Positions 9,234 through 64,000 of a stretch of DNA of 64,000 bases are shown here, one piece after another (within the stretch, counting starts at the first letter, position 1; the number at the start of each line of letters is the position of its first letter). A program made the position numbers and the translations under genes. Where the stretch lies: IMG/VR virus record IMGVR_UViG_3300025705_000475; one strand, 5' to 3'. The notes beneath the pieces are model-generated. The model was not told the DNA's origin, searched no databases, and was given only the letters and a program-made list of their open reading frames with translations. The stretch is from an uncultured virus (IMG/VR IMGVR_UViG_3300025705_000475) (taxonomy: Duplodnaviria; Heunggongvirae; Uroviricota; Caudoviricetes).

Positions 9234-10697
9234 ATGTCTACTTATAAATCATATTTTAATAGAAACACAACTATTGTTTCAAATTCATACGCAAATACAG
9301 GTAGAAACCCTATATGTGAACTATTCTTTGGTGGGGTAGATAATGTAATCACTCCAAAAGGGTTTAGTCGTTTTTTATTCGATATTGAATTATCAGGAAT
9401 AACTGAGCAAATTTATAATGGGGTTATTTCTACAGGTTGTTCAAAGAATATGAAACACATTCTTACTATGACCAATACATCATCATTTGATTTAGAACTA
9501 TTAAATGACACTTGGTCTAATGGAAGAAGAAGAGCAACTTCTTTTGATTTAGTATTATTTAGAATACCTAAAGTTTCAGGAACCACAGGTACTATTCAGT
9601 TGTGGGATGAAGGTGTAGGATACGATTACTACGATTTTACTGAATTACCTACAGACAAAGCCTACTCAAGTAGACCAACTAATTGGTACGAATCTCAAAC
9701 CATTTCAAATTGGTCAGTACCCGGAGTGTATGATAATTTAAATACTAATTCAAGTTCGGGTTTAAATTTCTCAGGTTTAACCATTATCGATACTCAACAT
9801 TTTGAATTTGGTAATGAGGATATTAAATTTGATATGACTCAAGAGATAAACGATATATTAACAGGAGCAACTACCGGAGTCGCTGGATGGGGAGTGGCAT
9901 ATTATCCTCAAGTTGAAAATATTACAGGATTAACTGAAAACTATTCGGTCGGATTTTTTACAAGACACACTCAAACTTTTTATGAGCCATATTTAGAAAC
10001 CACGTATGATGACTTAATACAAGACGATAGAAATATTTTTTATGAAAATAAAGAAAATAGGTTATATCTCTATAGTTACCAATTTGGTAACCCTCAAAAT
10101 TTTGACGAATTACCGTCTGTAGATATTATGGATATGAATGGTTCAATAATATTTTTAGATTTACCGACCTGTCAAATAACTAATGGGGTATATGAAGTTA
10201 TAGTACCACCATTAACATCATCAAGTATACCATGTATGATGTATGATACTTGGAAAAATTTAAAGATTAATGGAGTTAATATCTCTAATCAAACTAATGA
10301 ATTTGTAGTTAATGACTTATCGGAGTTATATCAAATTGGTTCAACAACGAATGACCCTTCATTATATGGTTTTGATTTCTTCGGTATTAAACAAGATGAA
10401 AAAATATTAGGACCAGATGTACGTAAAGTTAATGTTATAATTAAAAAGGCTTACACTACGAATGAAGTGCTAAATAAAGTTAACGCCTATTATAGGGTAT
10501 ATGTTAGAGAAGGTAAAACTGAAGTCCAAGTTCAAGATTGGACACAGTTAAACAGAACGCCAGACAGTCACTATTTTATTTTTAATACTGAAGATAAAAT
10601 ACCTAACGAATATTTTATCGATATAAAAGTATTGACGGATAGAGAGATTAATACCTATAAAAGAGAATTAAAGTTTCAAATAGTTAATAGAAAATGA
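9234..10697 (+). CDS. probable virion structural protein
   Basis: Beta-rich, Thr/Gly-rich 487 aa; TATTTATA upstream; next to the spike gene. Confidence 0.55.
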   Translation: MSTYKSYFNRNTTIVSNSYANTGRNPICELFFGGVDNVITPKGFSRFLFDIELSGITEQIYNGVISTGCSKNMKHILTMTNTSSFDLELLNDTWSNGRRRATSFDLVLFRIPKVSGTTGTIQLWDEGVGYDYYDFTELPTDKAYSSRPTNWYESQTISNWSVPGVYDNLNTNSSSGLNFSGLTIIDTQHFEFGNEDIKFDMTQEINDILTGATTGVAGWGVAYYPQVENITGLTENYSVGFFTRHTQTFYEPYLETTYDDLIQDDRNIFYENKENRLYLYSYQFGNPQNFDELPSVDIMDMNGSIIFLDLPTCQITNGVYEVIVPPLTSSSIPCMMYDTWKNLKINGVNISNQTNEFVVNDLSELYQIGSTTNDPSLYGFDFFGIKQDEKILGPDVRKVNVIIKKAYTTNEVLNKVNAYYRVYVREGKTEVQVQDWTQLNRTPDSHYFIFNTEDKIPNEYFIDIKVLTDREINTYKRELKFQIVNRK

Positions 10698-59877: not shown

Positions 59878-60239
59878 ATAAGAAATCGACAATATTTTGT
59901 GACATAGATGGAACGATATTCAAATATCGAAAGTTTGAAACGTATGAAACTTCATCAGTCGAAGTTTTACCTGAAGTAAAAGAAAAGTTGGAGTCGTGGA
60001 GTAAAGATGGTCATATGGTAATTTTAACTACCGCAAGACCTGATTACCTCCACGACCACACCGTTAAAGAATTACAAGAGAACGGAATAATGTATGACCG
60101 TTTAATTACAGGAATTGAGAGGGGTCCGAGAATCTTAATTAATGATATGGACCCTAATAAACCAGGTCAAAGAGCGTTTGGAGTAAACCTTAATAGAAAT
60201 GAGGGGTTCCAAAGTATCGATTGGTCTAATTATATTTAA
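59871..60239 (+). CDS. small HAD phosphatase
   Basis: FCDIDGTI, LTTAR, LIND. Confidence 0.8.
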   Translation: MVDKKSTIFCDIDGTIFKYRKFETYETSSVEVLPEVKEKLESWSKDGHMVILTTARPDYLHDHTVKELQENGIMYDRLITGIERGPRILINDMDPNKPGQRAFGVNLNRNEGFQSIDWSNYI

Positions 60240-60248
60240 ATTTAAATT

Positions 60249-60641
60249 ATGAGTGATTGGAGTAGTAAATTTCACGTAGAATCATCAATGCCGGCTAGAG
60301 ATGGTCAGTACGCGATGTTTGTAGGTAGATGGCAACCTTTACATAAAGGACATCAAGAGTTATTTAAACAAGCAATGGATAAAGGTAAAAATGTTTTAAT
60401 TTGTATTAGAGATGGAAAACCTAATGAAAAAAATCCATTTACGGCGACAGAAGTTAAAGAAAACATTATGAATCATTATTCTTCCGAAGTTGAATCAGGT
60501 AAAATTGCAGTAACGATTATCCCTGATATTTGTTCAATTGAATTTGGTAGAGGTGTTGGTTATGATATTATTGAACACACACCCCCTTCTGAAATCGGAG
60601 ATATCTCAGCGACTAAGATTCGTAAAGAAATGGGTCTTTAA
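60249..60641 (+). CDS. HxGH cytidylyl/adenylyltransferase-like
   Basis: GRWQPLHKGH, NPF, ISATKIR. Confidence 0.8.
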   Translation: MSDWSSKFHVESSMPARDGQYAMFVGRWQPLHKGHQELFKQAMDKGKNVLICIRDGKPNEKNPFTATEVKENIMNHYSSEVESGKIAVTIIPDICSIEFGRGVGYDIIEHTPPSEIGDISATKIRKEMGL

Positions 60642-60718
60642 GGTCAAAAATCAAATAATTGGGGCTCATTTTTTAATCTAAGTGAGCTCTATTTTACTAA
60701 TTAGTAAGCCAAAAAAAT

Positions 60719-61315
60719 ATGAAATTTAATAAGAAAGAATTGTTTTATTACTGTAGTAATGAATTACGATATAAAAAATTAAATAAAATAAAAGTACTAA
60801 TCCCTTCATTAGCCTTATTAGTTATATTTTTATTGTTAATCCCTATTAATGAATCATTAATTGGTAATGTATCGAATCATGATAATTTTGAATCTGATAT
60901 TTCAGTAATTAATATTAATGATACTTTAAATGATTTCTCGGAAGATAAATTAATAGATATGTTAATTTCTTTAAATATTAAGTTCCCACATATAGTATTG
61001 GCTCAGGCTAAACTCGAAAGTGGTAACTACTCATCTAAAATATTTAAGGAGAACCATAACCTTTTTGGTATGAAAGAGGCCAGAGTTAGAATACATACAT
61101 CTAAGGGTACTCAATTTAATCATGCATATTATAGTCACTGGAAAGAATCGGTGTATGACTATGCATTTTATCAGTGTCGATATCTATCGACCTTACACAC
61201 AGAAAAAGAATATTATAGTTACCTATCTAAATCTTACGCTGAAGCAAATAACTATGTAGACATATTAAAATCTATGGTTATTAAAGAAAACTTAAAAGAA
61301 AAATTTATATATTAG
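60719..61315 (+). CDS. membrane-anchored GH73 glucosaminidase
   Basis: N-terminal TM helix; LAQAKLESG, NLFGMK, YAE..NY. Confidence 0.8.
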   Translation: MKFNKKELFYYCSNELRYKKLNKIKVLIPSLALLVIFLLLIPINESLIGNVSNHDNFESDISVININDTLNDFSEDKLIDMLISLNIKFPHIVLAQAKLESGNYSSKIFKENHNLFGMKEARVRIHTSKGTQFNHAYYSHWKESVYDYAFYQCRYLSTLHTEKEYYSYLSKSYAEANNYVDILKSMVIKENLKEKFIY

Positions 61316-61348
61316 AATTTTATGTTTATATTAGCCCAAAGAAATAAA

Positions 61349-62026
61349 ATGAAAATCACATTCATATCTGATACACACACAAAACATCATCAGGTAACAT
61401 CACAGTTACCAGGTGGTGATTTACTAATTCATGCTGGGGATTTAATGAATAGTGGACATAATAAAAATGAGATTAATTATTTCTGTGAATGGTTTGAGTC
61501 TCAAGATTACAAACATAAAATTTTTATTGCCGGAAACCATGACAAGATGTTTGAAGACCACCCATTGGAATCAAACACAATTGTAAACAACTATGATGTT
61601 ACTTATCTACAAGATGATGAAGATATTATTGATGGTATAAAAATTTATGGAAGCCCTTGGCAACCTGAGTTTTATGATTGGGCATTTAACTTACCTAAAG
61701 ATGGTGTTGAATTAAAACAAAAGTGGAGTCTAATACCTACAGGTACAGACATATTAATAACTCATGGACCACCATATGGTCATTTAGATACCGTAGTTGG
61801 GCAGTACAATAATCTTGGGTGTAAGATGTTATCTGAACGAATTGAAGTAGTTAAACCTAAGATACATGTCTTTGGTCACATTCATAGTGGATACGGATAT
61901 AAGTTTGAAAATGGTACACATTACATTAATGCGTCTGTTTTAGGTGAAGATTACATTTTTAAAAATAAACCCTTAACAGTGGAGTGGGACCCAAATACGA
62001 ATAAAATTGAATTTTTAGATTATTAA
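61349..62026 (+). CDS. calcineurin-like metallophosphoesterase
   Basis: ISDTH, HAGD, AGNHD, THGPP, FGHIH. Confidence 0.9.
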   Translation: MKITFISDTHTKHHQVTSQLPGGDLLIHAGDLMNSGHNKNEINYFCEWFESQDYKHKIFIAGNHDKMFEDHPLESNTIVNNYDVTYLQDDEDIIDGIKIYGSPWQPEFYDWAFNLPKDGVELKQKWSLIPTGTDILITHGPPYGHLDTVVGQYNNLGCKMLSERIEVVKPKIHVFGHIHSGYGYKFENGTHYINASVLGEDYIFKNKPLTVEWDPNTNKIEFLDY

Positions 62027-62031
62027 TTAAA

Positions 62032-62643
62032 ATGAAATACAAATTAGAAGTTTACGGATGGTCAATGGAGGCGATGGCTCATTCATTAAATGACCAACAA
62101 TTAGAGGATGTGGATATCCTTATGAAAGACAATAACTGTGATGAACTATGGCAGATTAGGTCTGAGTTAGAAGACGTTGTTGACGATATGTGGGGACCCG
62201 ATTTATTTCATATGAACGCACCTTTTTATAACGGTAGTACGTTCTTTAGAGTTGTAGATGAAAATGAAAAAGTAATTTTAGAATTTGATGAGAAAGATTT
62301 GGGTGACTTATATGAAAATGTTGAAGATGTTGATGATTTATACCCCTATGAATCCCATTTCGCTTCACCTAATTACCGTAACGATGGTGTTAAACATATT
62401 ATGTTAGTTGTTGATGAAAATAAAGGTGGATTTTGTGAAATGTTATTTGAATCTGACGAGGAACTTAAACCTGAAGATTTTTCTGTAATGGGAGGTGGTA
62501 TTGATACACCTTTAGGTGAATGGGATTTTATCTCACGTATTTTCTTTAAAGATACCCTACTTGAGATTGACGATTGGTTAGATAATCGAGGTAAAGCGGC
62601 AACATTAGAGATTTATGCTGAAGATGGGAGAATCATACATTAA
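62032..62643 (+). CDS. acidic hypothetical protein
   Basis: 203-aa ORF. Confidence 0.65.
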   Translation: MKYKLEVYGWSMEAMAHSLNDQQLEDVDILMKDNNCDELWQIRSELEDVVDDMWGPDLFHMNAPFYNGSTFFRVVDENEKVILEFDEKDLGDLYENVEDVDDLYPYESHFASPNYRNDGVKHIMLVVDENKGGFCEMLFESDEELKPEDFSVMGGGIDTPLGEWDFISRIFFKDTLLEIDDWLDNRGKAATLEIYAEDGRIIH

Positions 62644-62765
62644 TGAAACTAACTAAAATTAAATTAAATAATCAGAATCGTATGTTACGTATTGGTTTTG
62701 GTTTAAATAAAGGAAATAAATTCTTTAGAATTGATTTATGGTGGATAGGTTACAGATTATCCTAA
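62643..62765 (+). CDS. 40-aa small protein not in the ORF track
   Basis: TAATG-coupled; MKLTKIKLNNQNRMLRIGFGLNKGNKFFRIDLWWIGYRLS. Confidence 0.5.
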   Translation: MKLTKIKLNNQNRMLRIGFGLNKGNKFFRIDLWWIGYRLS

Positions 62766-62772
62766 AATAAAA

Positions 62773-62803
62773 TTTGACAATTGAAATAACTTAACTATAT
62801 TTG
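62773..62803 (+). promoter_or_regulatory. Bacteroidota -33/-7 promoter of the tRNA operon
   Basis: TTTG (62773) - 19 nt - TATATTTG (62796). Confidence 0.8.
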
Positions 62804-62836
62804 TAGAGTACAAACAAGTACAAAACTATTTTAAAA

Positions 62837-62908
62837 ATGAATAAACGAAACACACATAATATAATATTAAGAAACTTATCAAGGATAAGAATCTTTAGTG
62901 TTATGTGA
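62837..62908 (+). CDS. putative attenuator leader peptide (23 aa)
   Basis: MNKRNTHNIILRNLSRIRIFSVM; A-rich 5' UTR; TGA then in-frame TAG; lies between promoter and terminator. Confidence 0.55.
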   Translation: MNKRNTHNIILRNLSRIRIFSVM

Positions 62909-62960
62909 TAGTTCGGTAAAACATAATGTAAAAAATAGACTTAAAGCTATGAAAAAGAAG

Positions 62961-62994
62961 AAGCCCGAACAGAGATGTTCGGGTTTTTTGTTTT
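62961..62994 (+). terminator. intrinsic terminator/attenuator in the tRNA operon leader
   Basis: AAGCCCGAACA-GAGA-TGTTCGGGTTT then TTTGTTTT. Confidence 0.85.
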
Positions 62995-63005
62995 ATATTA
63001 GCAGT

Positions 63006-63017
63006 GTTCTTTGACAT
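63006..63017 (+). promoter_or_regulatory. boxA-like element
   Basis: GTTCTTTGACAT, repeated exactly at 63964-63975. Confidence 0.55.
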
Positions 63018-63054
63018 CAAGATTAAGTAACGACACAGTATTCGGTAAAATACT

Positions 63055-63127
63055 GACCTCTTAGCTCAGCTGGTAGAGCATCACACTTTTAATGTGAGGG
63101 TCCAGGGTTCGAACCCCTGAGGGGTCA
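63055..63127 (+). tRNA. tRNA-Lys(UUU)
   Basis: Cloverleaf; anticodon arm TCACA-CTTTTAA-TGTGA; CCA not encoded. Confidence 0.93.
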
Positions 63128-63187
63128 CTATCGCCAATACTAAATCGAGTTTTGCGCCTCTACATAAAATATGGGTGTTTTCAACAT

Positions 63188-63261
63188 GGGGATGTAGCTC
63201 AGTTGGTTAGAGCAGGACTCTTATATGGTCAAGGTCGTAGGTTCAATTCCTACCGTCCCTA
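63188..63261 (+). tRNA. tRNA-Ile(UAU)
   Basis: Cloverleaf; anticodon loop CTTATAT; G1:U72 pair; T-arm GTAGG-TTCAATT-CCTAC. Confidence 0.85.
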
Positions 63262-63337
63262 CAATTAAATTAATTTAATAAAATAGTTGTTACTTAATCA
63301 TTTGTACCGTACATTTACAGTATTGGAAGATATAGAT

Positions 63338-63423
63338 GCCGAAGTGGTGGAATTGGTAGACACGAGGGACTTAAAATCCCTTGGACAGTAATGTCCGTGA
63401 CGGTTCGAGCCCGTCCTTCGGTA
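63338..63423 (+). tRNA. tRNA-Leu(UAA)
   Basis: AGGGA-CTTAAAA-TCCCT; long variable arm GGACA-GTAA-TGTCC. Confidence 0.93.
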
Positions 63424-63605
63424 CACAGATAGGGAGTTATCCAATACGCGTTGGAACTAGATAACTTTAAAATAGAACCCTATCTTTTACATGTACCCAA
63501 CATACAGTTTAAGAGAGGTAGTGAAGCTACAATGATATAGAAAAAGGTAAGGGTTAACCTCTATATCGTAGTAACCCCGAAAGACCCGAAACCTCTCTTT
63601 TACAT

Positions 63606-63679
63606 GCACCCATAGCTCAGCTGGATAGAGCATCTGCCTTCTAAGCAGACGGTCTCAGGTTCGAATCCTGATGGGTGTA
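63606..63679 (+). tRNA. tRNA-Arg(UCU)
   Basis: TCTGC-CTTCTAA-GCAGA; acceptor stem GCACCCA/TGGGTGT. Confidence 0.93.
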
Positions 63680-63882
63680 CTAACGTGTCAAAGTAACATT
63701 GACTAATGCGTCATACATGAAGAGAAATAAGGTAGAATCCTTATAGTGACTAATCAACTAGTGAGAATGCTAGTCGGAGTTTGAGTTCTCCTAATAAATA
63801 AAAACTTTATTCCTAACCAATATTGTTTATACTCTATTGGGACATCCGTGACAGTTGTAGTTGGATAAAATAGACTGTTAAC

Positions 63883-63956
63883 GGACTTTTAGCTCAGTTG
63901 GTTAGAGCACCGCACTCATAATGCGTAGGTCGATGGTTCGAGTCCATCAAGGTCCA
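63883..63956 (+). tRNA. tRNA with CAU anticodon, probably Ile2 (lysidine type) rather than Met
   Basis: Loop CTCATAA; acceptor GGACTTT/AAGGTCC resembles bacterial Ile2 tRNAs as I recall them; no initiator C1:A72 or GGG/CCC. Confidence 0.8.
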
Positions 63957-64000
63957 CTAGTGAGTTCTTTGACATAAAAAATAAATTAAAAAATAGAAAT

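Follow-up and report, generated by a model that had tools for sequence, protein, structure and literature searches.

A candidate leader-peptide attenuator with a host-type boxA ahead of a phage tRNA array

We analyzed the region preceding a tRNA gene array in an uncultured virus of the Caudoviricetes (IMG/VR record IMGVR_UViG_3300025705_000475), using a stretch of 64,000 nucleotides hereafter called the window. Our results suggest that this array is gated by a ribosome-sensing transcription attenuator of the trp/his leader-peptide type, followed by a boxA of the host type, and we assign to this reading a probability of roughly 0.6. What we observed is a conserved anatomy, leader codons that match the downstream array, alternative pairings that covary and a sequence match to boxA. 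The significance of the attenuator reading comes from a comparison of 12 related units, because the window alone departs only partly from chance. An earlier annotation made from the letters of the window (the sequence-only reading) had proposed such an attenuator, and the conservation of the open reading frame (ORF), the codon-array match and the covariation of the stems in relatives lend support to it. If so, the phage probably makes the tRNAs of the array only while their codons are read slowly.

The window is A+T-rich (32% G+C), its ORFs are tightly packed and its nearest records are IMG/VR virus contigs. It originates from a large phage of Flavobacteria-type bacteria, and the related units sit in phages of Bacteroidota-type hosts. 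The unit of the window consists of the following elements:

62773..62803, + strand: promoter P1, with -33 box TTTG, 19 nt of spacing and -7 box TATATTTG; exact match to TTTG-N17-21-TAnnTTTG
62837..62908, + strand: leader ORF, 23 sense codons plus TGA, peptide MNKRNTHNIILRNLSRIRIFSVM; first ATG after the -7 box, 33 nt downstream
62846..62915, + strand: candidate protector hairpin over the ORF, its base formed by CGAA at 62846-49 (segment 1) and TTCG at 62912-15 (part of segment 2); from minimum-energy folds
62911..62916, + strand: segment 2, GTTCGG, a copy of the terminator 3' arm located 2 nt past the stop codon; complements 62965-62970
62958..62989, + strand: intrinsic terminator, core GCCCGAACA / TGTTCGGGT with a GAGA loop and an A-tract/U-tract extension; from the terminator scan and folds
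63006..63017, + strand: boxA-like site GTTCTTTGACAT; match to an rRNA operon (rrn) spacer boxA
63055..63128, + strand: tRNA-Lys (UUU); tRNA search
63188..63262, + strand: tRNA-Ile (UAU); tRNA search
63338..63424, + strand: tRNA-Leu (UAA); tRNA search
63606..63680, + strand: tRNA-Arg (UCU); tRNA search
63883..63957, + strand: tRNA-Met (CAU); tRNA search
63964..63975, + strand: second boxA-like copy GTTCTTTGACAT, past the last tRNA of the window; pattern match

The comparison comprised the three leader types (A, B and C) of the window's clade and nine units from five more distant phages. These phages were found by aligning the 203-residue protein encoded upstream (two phages, 42% identity) and, for the others, by using tRNA-Glu as an anchor; this anchor returned 10 loci, in most of which Glu is not the first tRNA, and whole array regions were used instead. 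The same order of elements was found in 12/12 units: a Bacteroidota-type promoter, a short ORF ending at a copy of the terminator 3' arm, an intrinsic terminator, a boxA-like site and the tRNA array. Some of the distant units contain a second promoter; in these distant units the motif GTTCTTTGACATATTGG follows the terminator and the first tRNA begins ~10-25 nt past this motif. The presence of a conserved short ORF in relatives had been set beforehand as a test of the attenuator, and in every unit (12/12) the first ATG to follow the -7 box, at a distance of 21-46 nt, opens such an ORF, of 22-34 codons. The units do not represent a single recently transferred module, since their sequences, stems and arrays differ.

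We then compared the codons of each leader to the tRNAs of each array, assigning cognate codons by plain wobble (G34 reads C/U, U34 reads A/G, C34 reads G and A34 reads U/C/A). Codons read by the unit's own array are enriched relative to gene usage in 12/12 units (log2 of 0.13-1.56; binomial P < 0.05 in 10/12), the usage tables of the relatives being built from only 1,000-4,300 codons. Where one genome carries two leaders, the codons exclusive to each array were contrasted between them, which yielded P = 0.0033, 0.097, 0.00011 and 7.9e-6 (Fisher tests); when pooled, these within-genome counts are 77:12 versus 29:48 (odds ratio 10.6; P = 3.7e-11), although pooled P values overstate independence because the units are partly homologous (the G007/G008 pairs and types A-C). 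None of 100,000 permutations of leaders and arrays reached the observed mean enrichment, and the own array ranked first of 12 for 9/12 leaders. The rare residues Cys, Trp and His occur exactly in the leaders whose arrays carry those tRNAs. Four units are given here with their arrays and leader peptides:

Window unit: array Lys, Ile, Leu, Arg, Met; leader peptide MNKRNTHNIILRNLSRIRIFSVM
Unit G007_Phe: array Phe, Ile, Gln, Lys, Val, Tyr, Cys, His, Arg, Trp, Met; leader peptide MTLVHKHMVKNMIQFCQNWYIRLSVSSGVVS
Unit G007_Glu: array Glu, Thr, Leu, Met, Gly, Asp, Ala, Pro; leader peptide MKTIFIFGTPATEGDTSKVEMG
Unit G009_Ala: array Ala, Asp, Met, Gly, Leu, Thr, Ile, Glu; leader peptide MRNLDIILLGTTEAIGLTQVGMV

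The same correspondence was observed within the window's clade. The array of type C contains an additional tRNA-Ser(UGA) and tRNA-Tyr(GUA), and its leader contains three Tyr and three UCN codons, relative to none and one, respectively, in type A. In total, 17/22 codons of the type C leader are cognate to its own array (shuffle P = 0.0008). A match between leader codons and the anticodons of each array, as the sequence-only reading had predicted, is therefore found across the units by enrichment, by the within-genome tests and by permutation; for the window alone, the comparison to shuffled ORFs gives P = 0.24-0.28.

The pairings covary as well. Five terminator stems were found among the 12 units (5' arms CCCGAAC, CCCATCT, CCCACC, CCTCGG and GCCCGG), and the segment near the stop codon follows the stem (respectively, GTTCGG(G), AGATGGG, GGTGGG, CCGAGG and GGTTGGGC). 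When the best complement to the terminator 5' arm was searched from the ORF start to the terminator, it fell in the interval from -21 to +5 nt around the stop codon in 12/12 units. In folds computed without the terminator, segment 2 is paired upstream in 12/12 units, and with the first codons of the ORF in 9/12. Covariation between antiterminator and terminator, proposed beforehand as a check, was thus recovered between clades, each of the five stems being copied at the end of its ORF.

Closer relatives were collected by scanning viral and metagenome collections with exact patterns of the leader and of the pre-tRNA block, which yielded 14 leaders including that of the window. Type A includes the window and seven near-identical loci, type B four loci and type C one locus. 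The nearest record (G001; 198.8 kb) has a leader identical to that of the window and thus provides no information on variation. The promoter boxes, the ATG, AATATTAAGAA, GTTCGG (invariant in the 14 aligned leaders), the terminator core and the 44 nt from the terminator to tRNA-Lys are invariant or nearly so across types. In all three types an uninterrupted ORF begins at the same ATG (23, 26 and 23 codons in A, B and C, respectively), and that of type C shows many amino-acid changes relative to type A. Type B keeps the closing stem of the hairpin in other letters (UAACC:GGUUA), and the terminator of type C presents a C>U change in its 3' arm that retains a G-U pair. Two variants of type A (L004 and L036) carry two substitutions in the ORF (AAC>AAT and TGA>TAA) that preserve the reading. 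Another small ORF of the window, which crosses the terminator (62949-63014), looks conserved in type C; it was rejected as coding because it is frame-shifted in type B.

The boxA-like site GTTCTTTGACAT precedes the first tRNA at 63006-63017, where the sequence-only reading had placed such a site. It is identical at 11/12 positions to GTTCATTGACAT of a Flavobacteriaceae rrn spacer. In one Flavobacteriaceae genome, the 16S leader holds AAGTTCATGTACATATTGGGA and the spacer before the 23S holds AAGTTCATTGACATATTGGGA. The 17-mer GTTCATTGACATATTGG was found in 8/31 sampled genomes of the Flavobacteriaceae family (0 for the reversed-pattern control), and in 6/6 examined loci it is on the rRNA strand, after the spacer tRNAs and before the start of the 23S. 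The motif of the distant relatives (GTTCTTTGACATATTGG) matches this 17-mer at 16/17 positions. The site is invariant in all aligned leaders and recurs before 10 arrays of relatives. Considering its match to a boxA of host-group rRNA and its position within a stable-RNA transcript, we classify it by sequence as a candidate rrn-type boxA with predicted Nus binding. This suggests that the phages have borrowed an rrn boxA and may rely on Nus antitermination by the host to make their stable RNAs. Because it sits after the terminator, the site would act solely on polymerases that have already read through, and it presumably shields the long untranslated array from Rho.

We considered that TTCTTTGACA could be a genome-wide phage promoter motif and discarded this idea, as just two copies, both flanking the array, are present in the window and in the 198.8-kb record G001. 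Exact matches to the 14-mer GTGTTCTTTGACAT in bacterial genomes were scattered over taxa with 0/80 beside a 16S start, an uninformative scan, and a 21-mer of the pre-tRNA block had no match in bacterial genomes. Literature searches on boxA and on leader-peptide attenuators in Bacteroidetes returned nothing usable. In relatives, a 111-codon ORF follows the second boxA-like copy. Separately, the 16S leader of a Flavobacteriaceae genome (L159 1-203) contains a weak hairpin followed by an eight-T run (TTGGTCCTTAGGCCAATTTTTTTT) ~30 nt upstream of a boxA-like site, and this host-family rrn leader presents the same hairpin-then-boxA order as the phage units.

The attenuator that we propose would function as follows. 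Host RNA polymerase would initiate at P1 (62773-62803), and a ribosome would load on the 23-codon ORF, rich in AAA, ATA, TTA and AGA/AGG, which are the codons of the downstream Lys-UUU, Ile-UAU, Leu-UAA and Arg-UCU. Rapid reading of these codons would bring the ribosome to the stop codon, where it would cover GTTCGG (62911-16); the terminator would then form and transcription would end at ~62990. With no ribosome, GTTCGG would be held in the long hairpin of the ORF, with the same outcome. A stall on a hungry codon would keep the hairpin open, so that GTTCGG could pair with the emerging CCGAAC (62965-70), the terminator would be delayed and the polymerase would read on. A ribosome whose A site holds ATA (codon 9), with a footprint spanning about -12 to +15 nt, would have its upstream edge at ~62846, exactly at CGAA. 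The boxA-like site (63006-17) would then recruit host Nus antitermination factors and the untranslated array would be transcribed to its end. The new tRNAs would speed the reading of the leader and close the loop, so that decoding capacity would be under negative feedback. The steps that we infer are translation of the ORF, ribosome stalling, competition by kinetics, conditional read-through, binding of Nus factors and feedback; a link to anticodon nucleases is speculation.

The elements named in the sequence-only reading are all present in the window. These include the ORF at 62837-62908 with its nine named codons (AAA, three ATA, two TTA, two AGA and AGG), to which ATG is added when the whole array is considered, GTTCGG at 62911-16, CCGAAC at 62965-70 (segment 3) and the letters of the alternative hairpin TTATGT/ACATAA (62901-06/62921-26). 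The minimum-energy fold of the leader holds the pairings that had been named, including CGAA with TTCG. The strong terminator with a GAGA loop and a U tract was likewise found, at 62958-62989; it has a GC-rich stem and 14 pairs when counting the A-U and G-U pairs formed with the U tract (dG of -21.3 kcal/mol in a 43-nt segment), and its 3' arm (segment 4) is GTTCGG at 62977-82. Relative to shuffled sequences, the leader fold presents a z-score of -2.8 without the terminator and -6.6 with it. Segment 2 at 62911-16 is the best upstream complement to the terminator 5' arm of the window. In constrained folds, the helix between segments 2 and 3 forms once the 5' arm and the loop are made, before the 3' arm exists, and a ribosome placed at the stop codon prevents it.

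Several observations weigh against the attenuator, to which the second promoters described further below must be added. The window's unit is weak on its own, and the weakest of the 12. Its 9/23 cognate codons exceed expectation when compared to the codon usage of phage genes (P = 0.014) but only marginally when compared to local base composition (P = 0.046), and with the full array included the count is 10/22 versus an expected fraction of 0.23 (binomial test against gene usage; P = 0.015). However, when the ORF is shuffled without creating stop codons the count is no longer unusual (P = 0.28 with the four core tRNAs and P = 0.24 with the full array), and the other two frames of the leader yield similar numbers (5-8 of 24 cognate codons). 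The sequence-only reading had cautioned that such codons are common in AT-rich DNA, and the count in the window is indeed explained by composition. It had also cautioned that the antiterminator is only 6 bp; this helix must form across a 48-nt loop, and 405/2000 shuffles yield an equally long complement to the terminator 5' arm. In the finished transcript of the window, the terminator wins at equilibrium in every modelled state, so any switch must be kinetic, as in classical attenuators. When the terminator 5' arm is present, the fold with segments 2 and 3 paired is better by ~1 kcal/mol even without a ribosome, so our constrained folds do not separate the state without ribosome from the stalled state.

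The relatives also bring points of this kind. Since GTTCGG and CCGAAC are invariant within the window's clade, covariation is visible only between clades. In type B, a 13-nt deletion frame-shifts the 3' part of the ORF, removes the inner hairpin and moves the stop codon past GTTCGG. The limits of the arrays were set by hand from gaps and from the position of the next leader. Finally, the Leu-Leu-Asn mini-arrays of distant relatives have no leader ORF or terminator, which indicates that not every array is gated. One of these presents a -7 box and a boxA-like site after a protein gene and the other a -7 box only (L162 780-830 and L163 385-432). Judged on the window alone, before the distant relatives are considered, the attenuator is unconvincing and would have been deemed unlikely.

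Part of this evidence would fit another explanation, in which the stretch from promoter to terminator encodes a structured small RNA of ~185 nt or a strong but leaky leader. The tRNAs would then be made by constitutive partial read-through, rendered processive by boxA, and the ORF would not be a sensor. The good fold of the leader with and without its terminator (z-scores above), the strength of that terminator at equilibrium in all modelled states of the window, a codon content attributable to A+T-rich composition and the frame-shifted 3' part of the ORF in type B are all compatible with this scheme. It would also account for one metagenome contig (L033; 4.5 kb, 1.7x coverage) that keeps window positions 62856-63128, i.e. 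from the middle of the ORF to the 3' end of tRNA-Lys, at 99% identity but without P1 or the ATG. This copy lies between a DinB-like gene and a second tRNA-Ile(UAU) and may represent a recombinant module or an assembly chimera; because the contig is short, of low coverage and possibly recombinant or chimeric, we gave it little weight. However, a small RNA or leaky leader offers no account of codons that track their own array within a genome and under permutation, of Cys, Trp and His residues confined to the leaders of arrays with those tRNAs, or of a copy of the 3' arm that follows the stem at the ORF stop in 12/12 units. We therefore consider this explanation possible but not probable.

It is also conceivable that the array has its own promoter past the terminator, in which case the leader would be an independent upstream gene and its terminator would also end the upstream operon. 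A scan of 60000-64000 found no terminator between the upstream genes and 62958 other than one at 60660, in line with this idea. The promoter of the leader itself was found where the sequence-only reading had placed it, with TTTG, 19 nt and TATATTTG at 62773-62803. We assigned P1 by what we take to be the housekeeping promoter consensus of Bacteroidota (-33 TTTG and -7 TAnnTTTG with 19-21 nt of spacing). P1 is the best sigma-70-type match within 60000-64000 (11/12), and its two boxes are conserved across leader types A, B and C and in relatives. The pattern TTTG-N17-21-TAnnTTTG has 6 matches in the window versus 3.9 expected by chance, and so the pattern alone is not rare.

A full second promoter (TTG-N17-22-TAnnTTTG) lies between the terminator and boxA in 4/12 units (G007_Glu, G008_Glu, G009_Ala and G010_Leu), where it would bypass the terminator. 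A fifth match to this expression falls inside a tRNA gene, and 7/12 units have none, including all three types of the window's clade. The window contains a related element past its terminator:

62994..63001, + strand: degenerate -7-like box TATATTAG; aligns with the -7 box of the second promoter of G010_Leu, TATATTTG

This box, which appears to be a degenerate remnant of a second promoter, and a phage-specific promoter overlapping the TTGACA contained in the boxA-like site are the two candidates for a separate start. The box reads TTAG where the consensus has TTTG, and no -33 TTG stands at an appropriate distance from it. On the + strand of 62601-64000, P1 is the sole TAnnTTTG, with none after 62803, and the scan of 60000-64000 listed no sigma-70-type site from 62832 to 63847. 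In four of the seven units without a second promoter, the U tract lies within 1-8 nt of boxA, which leaves no room for a promoter. A separate promoter downstream of the terminator, which the sequence-only reading had named as evidence that would speak against it, is thus absent from the window by consensus but present in 4/12 related units. Without a consensus promoter after the terminator, the array of the window would depend on read-through from P1, and we regard a promoter of its own as improbable. That a promoter, an AT-rich open frame and the upstream operon's terminator lie together by chance, with no regulatory meaning, is very improbable: open frames of 20-40 codons are common here (four overlap 62790-63020) and the codon and 6-bp statistics of the window alone are near chance, but the same ordered layout recurs in 12/12 units with a flanking protein only 42% identical, and codon tracking and stem covariation hold across units.

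The attenuator may also be one member of a larger set. We see about even odds that large phages of Flavobacteria-type bacteria carry a family of multi-codon "panel" attenuators, each composed of a mini-gene written in the codons of its array, a terminator and a boxA stolen from the host. Such a unit would sense supply codon by codon and switch on exactly the set of tRNAs that is short, and its products would switch it off again. If true, panel attenuators would answer a shortage of tRNAs arising from codon-usage mismatch, from starvation or from a host defence by anticodon nucleases.

Several features were observed beside the leader. Upstream, a 40-codon ORF (MKLTKIKLNNQNRMLRIGFGLNKGNKFFRIDLWWIGYRLS; 62643-62765) overlaps the stop codon of the preceding gene by one base and is likely a real small gene because it is conserved in types B and C; in these two types, an extra 126-codon gene lies between this ORF and P1. 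Within the array, the spacer between tRNA-Leu and tRNA-Arg (63425-63485) can fold into an acceptor-like stem (GATAGGG...CCCTATC) that encloses an inner hairpin with two compensatory pair changes (GTTATC/GATAAC in the window and GTTACA/TGTAAC in types B and C, L009 and L007). This spacer may represent either the remnant of a tRNA or a structured RNA that has been conserved. A 113-nt segment between the same two tRNAs (63483-63595), flanked by the direct repeat TCTTTTACATG(T/C)ACCCA, is present in the window and G001 and absent from L004, L007 and L009. In two relatives, a tRNA-like element of 116-117 nt is inserted after tRNA-Arg, at G001:C1:101849-101964 and G003:C1:122087-122203 (RF00005; 38-39 bits); the intron mode of ARAGORN reads it, with uncertainty, as tRNA-Ile(UAU) with a 35-nt intron. 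ARAGORN also reported a tRNA with a four-base anticodon (caag) at L175 (G008) 4333 and one with a CUA anticodon ("Pyl") on the reverse strand of L177 (G010) at 10037, which are possible suppressors of frameshifts or stop codons.

Searches against known sequences did not reveal a described counterpart. Among GenBank phages, blastn returned only tRNA-sized matches and no relative of the leader. The Rfam scan of 62000-64000 at E values up to 10 gave 23 matches, consisting of tRNAs and of sub-threshold matches driven by the terminator (e.g., MicC with 29.5 bits versus a cut-off of 90), and no known family fits. About half of the sampled words of 62500-64000 are present in 9 listed RNA-recorded runs, which says nothing on transcripts here.

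Like T-box riboswitches, the proposed attenuator would sense the status of tRNAs and choose between a terminator and an antiterminator. In a T-box, a specifier codon and a conserved T-box sequence make direct contact with a single uncharged tRNA, whereas the phage leader has many in-frame codons behind an ATG, which points to reading by a ribosome rather than to T-box binding; no T-box family was among the 23 Rfam matches, and we rejected this possibility. The unit also resembles rrn leaders with NusB/NusE-dependent boxA, as its boxA, placed between a promoter and genes for stable RNAs, is nearly identical to the one in a Flavobacteriaceae rrn spacer, and the two tandem promoters before boxA in four related units recall the tandem P1/P2 of rrn. 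Unlike in rrn leaders, the phage boxA lies after a terminator, and to our knowledge rrn leaders hold neither a translated ORF nor a codon-matched attenuator. Another point of comparison is the tRNA gene cluster of phage T4, likewise a phage tRNA array, which gives rise to a polycistronic precursor and has small stable RNAs as neighbours; we know of no leader peptide, attenuator or boxA for this cluster, and literature searches found none either. At the level of titles and abstracts, these searches returned no description of an attenuator or a leader peptide that precedes tRNA genes, whether in phages or elsewhere. Genes for tRNAs are common in phages, but, as far as we know, little is understood of how their expression is controlled. 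If the attenuator is true, the signature of promoter, codon-panel ORF, stop-proximal copy of the terminator arm, terminator, boxA and tRNAs would reveal which codons a phage finds limiting, and the questions of why phages carry tRNAs, and whether they do so in answer to the cleavage or depletion of host tRNAs, would become directly testable.

The closest parallel is found in the leader-peptide attenuators of enterobacteria, which precede amino-acid operons (trpL, hisL, leuL, thrL, ilvL and pheL) or, in the case of pheM, the pheST genes. The phage unit shares with them a short ORF, enriched in the codons that would be sensed, between a promoter and an intrinsic terminator, as well as mutually exclusive pairings (2:3 and 3:4, with a candidate 1:2) in which a ribosome at the stop codon would mask segment 2. 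As in the ilv and thr leaders, it would be multivalent, with several amino acids sensed. There is no sequence similarity to these leaders, the Leu, Thr and Phe leader families of Rfam scoring 18-20 bits versus cut-offs of 50-55. In contrast to the amino-acid-operon attenuators, the phage unit would regulate tRNAs rather than enzymes or synthetases, its codon panel covers up to ~12 different amino acids instead of repeating a single one, the phages that carry it have Bacteroidota-type hosts and a boxA follows. Its signal would be the supply of isoacceptors, those that read A/U-ending codons, and its products would act directly on the sensor. If true, tRNA supply in infected cells would be governed by decoding speed, measured directly and with feedback, and leader-peptide attenuation would extend from amino-acid metabolism to the translation machinery itself.

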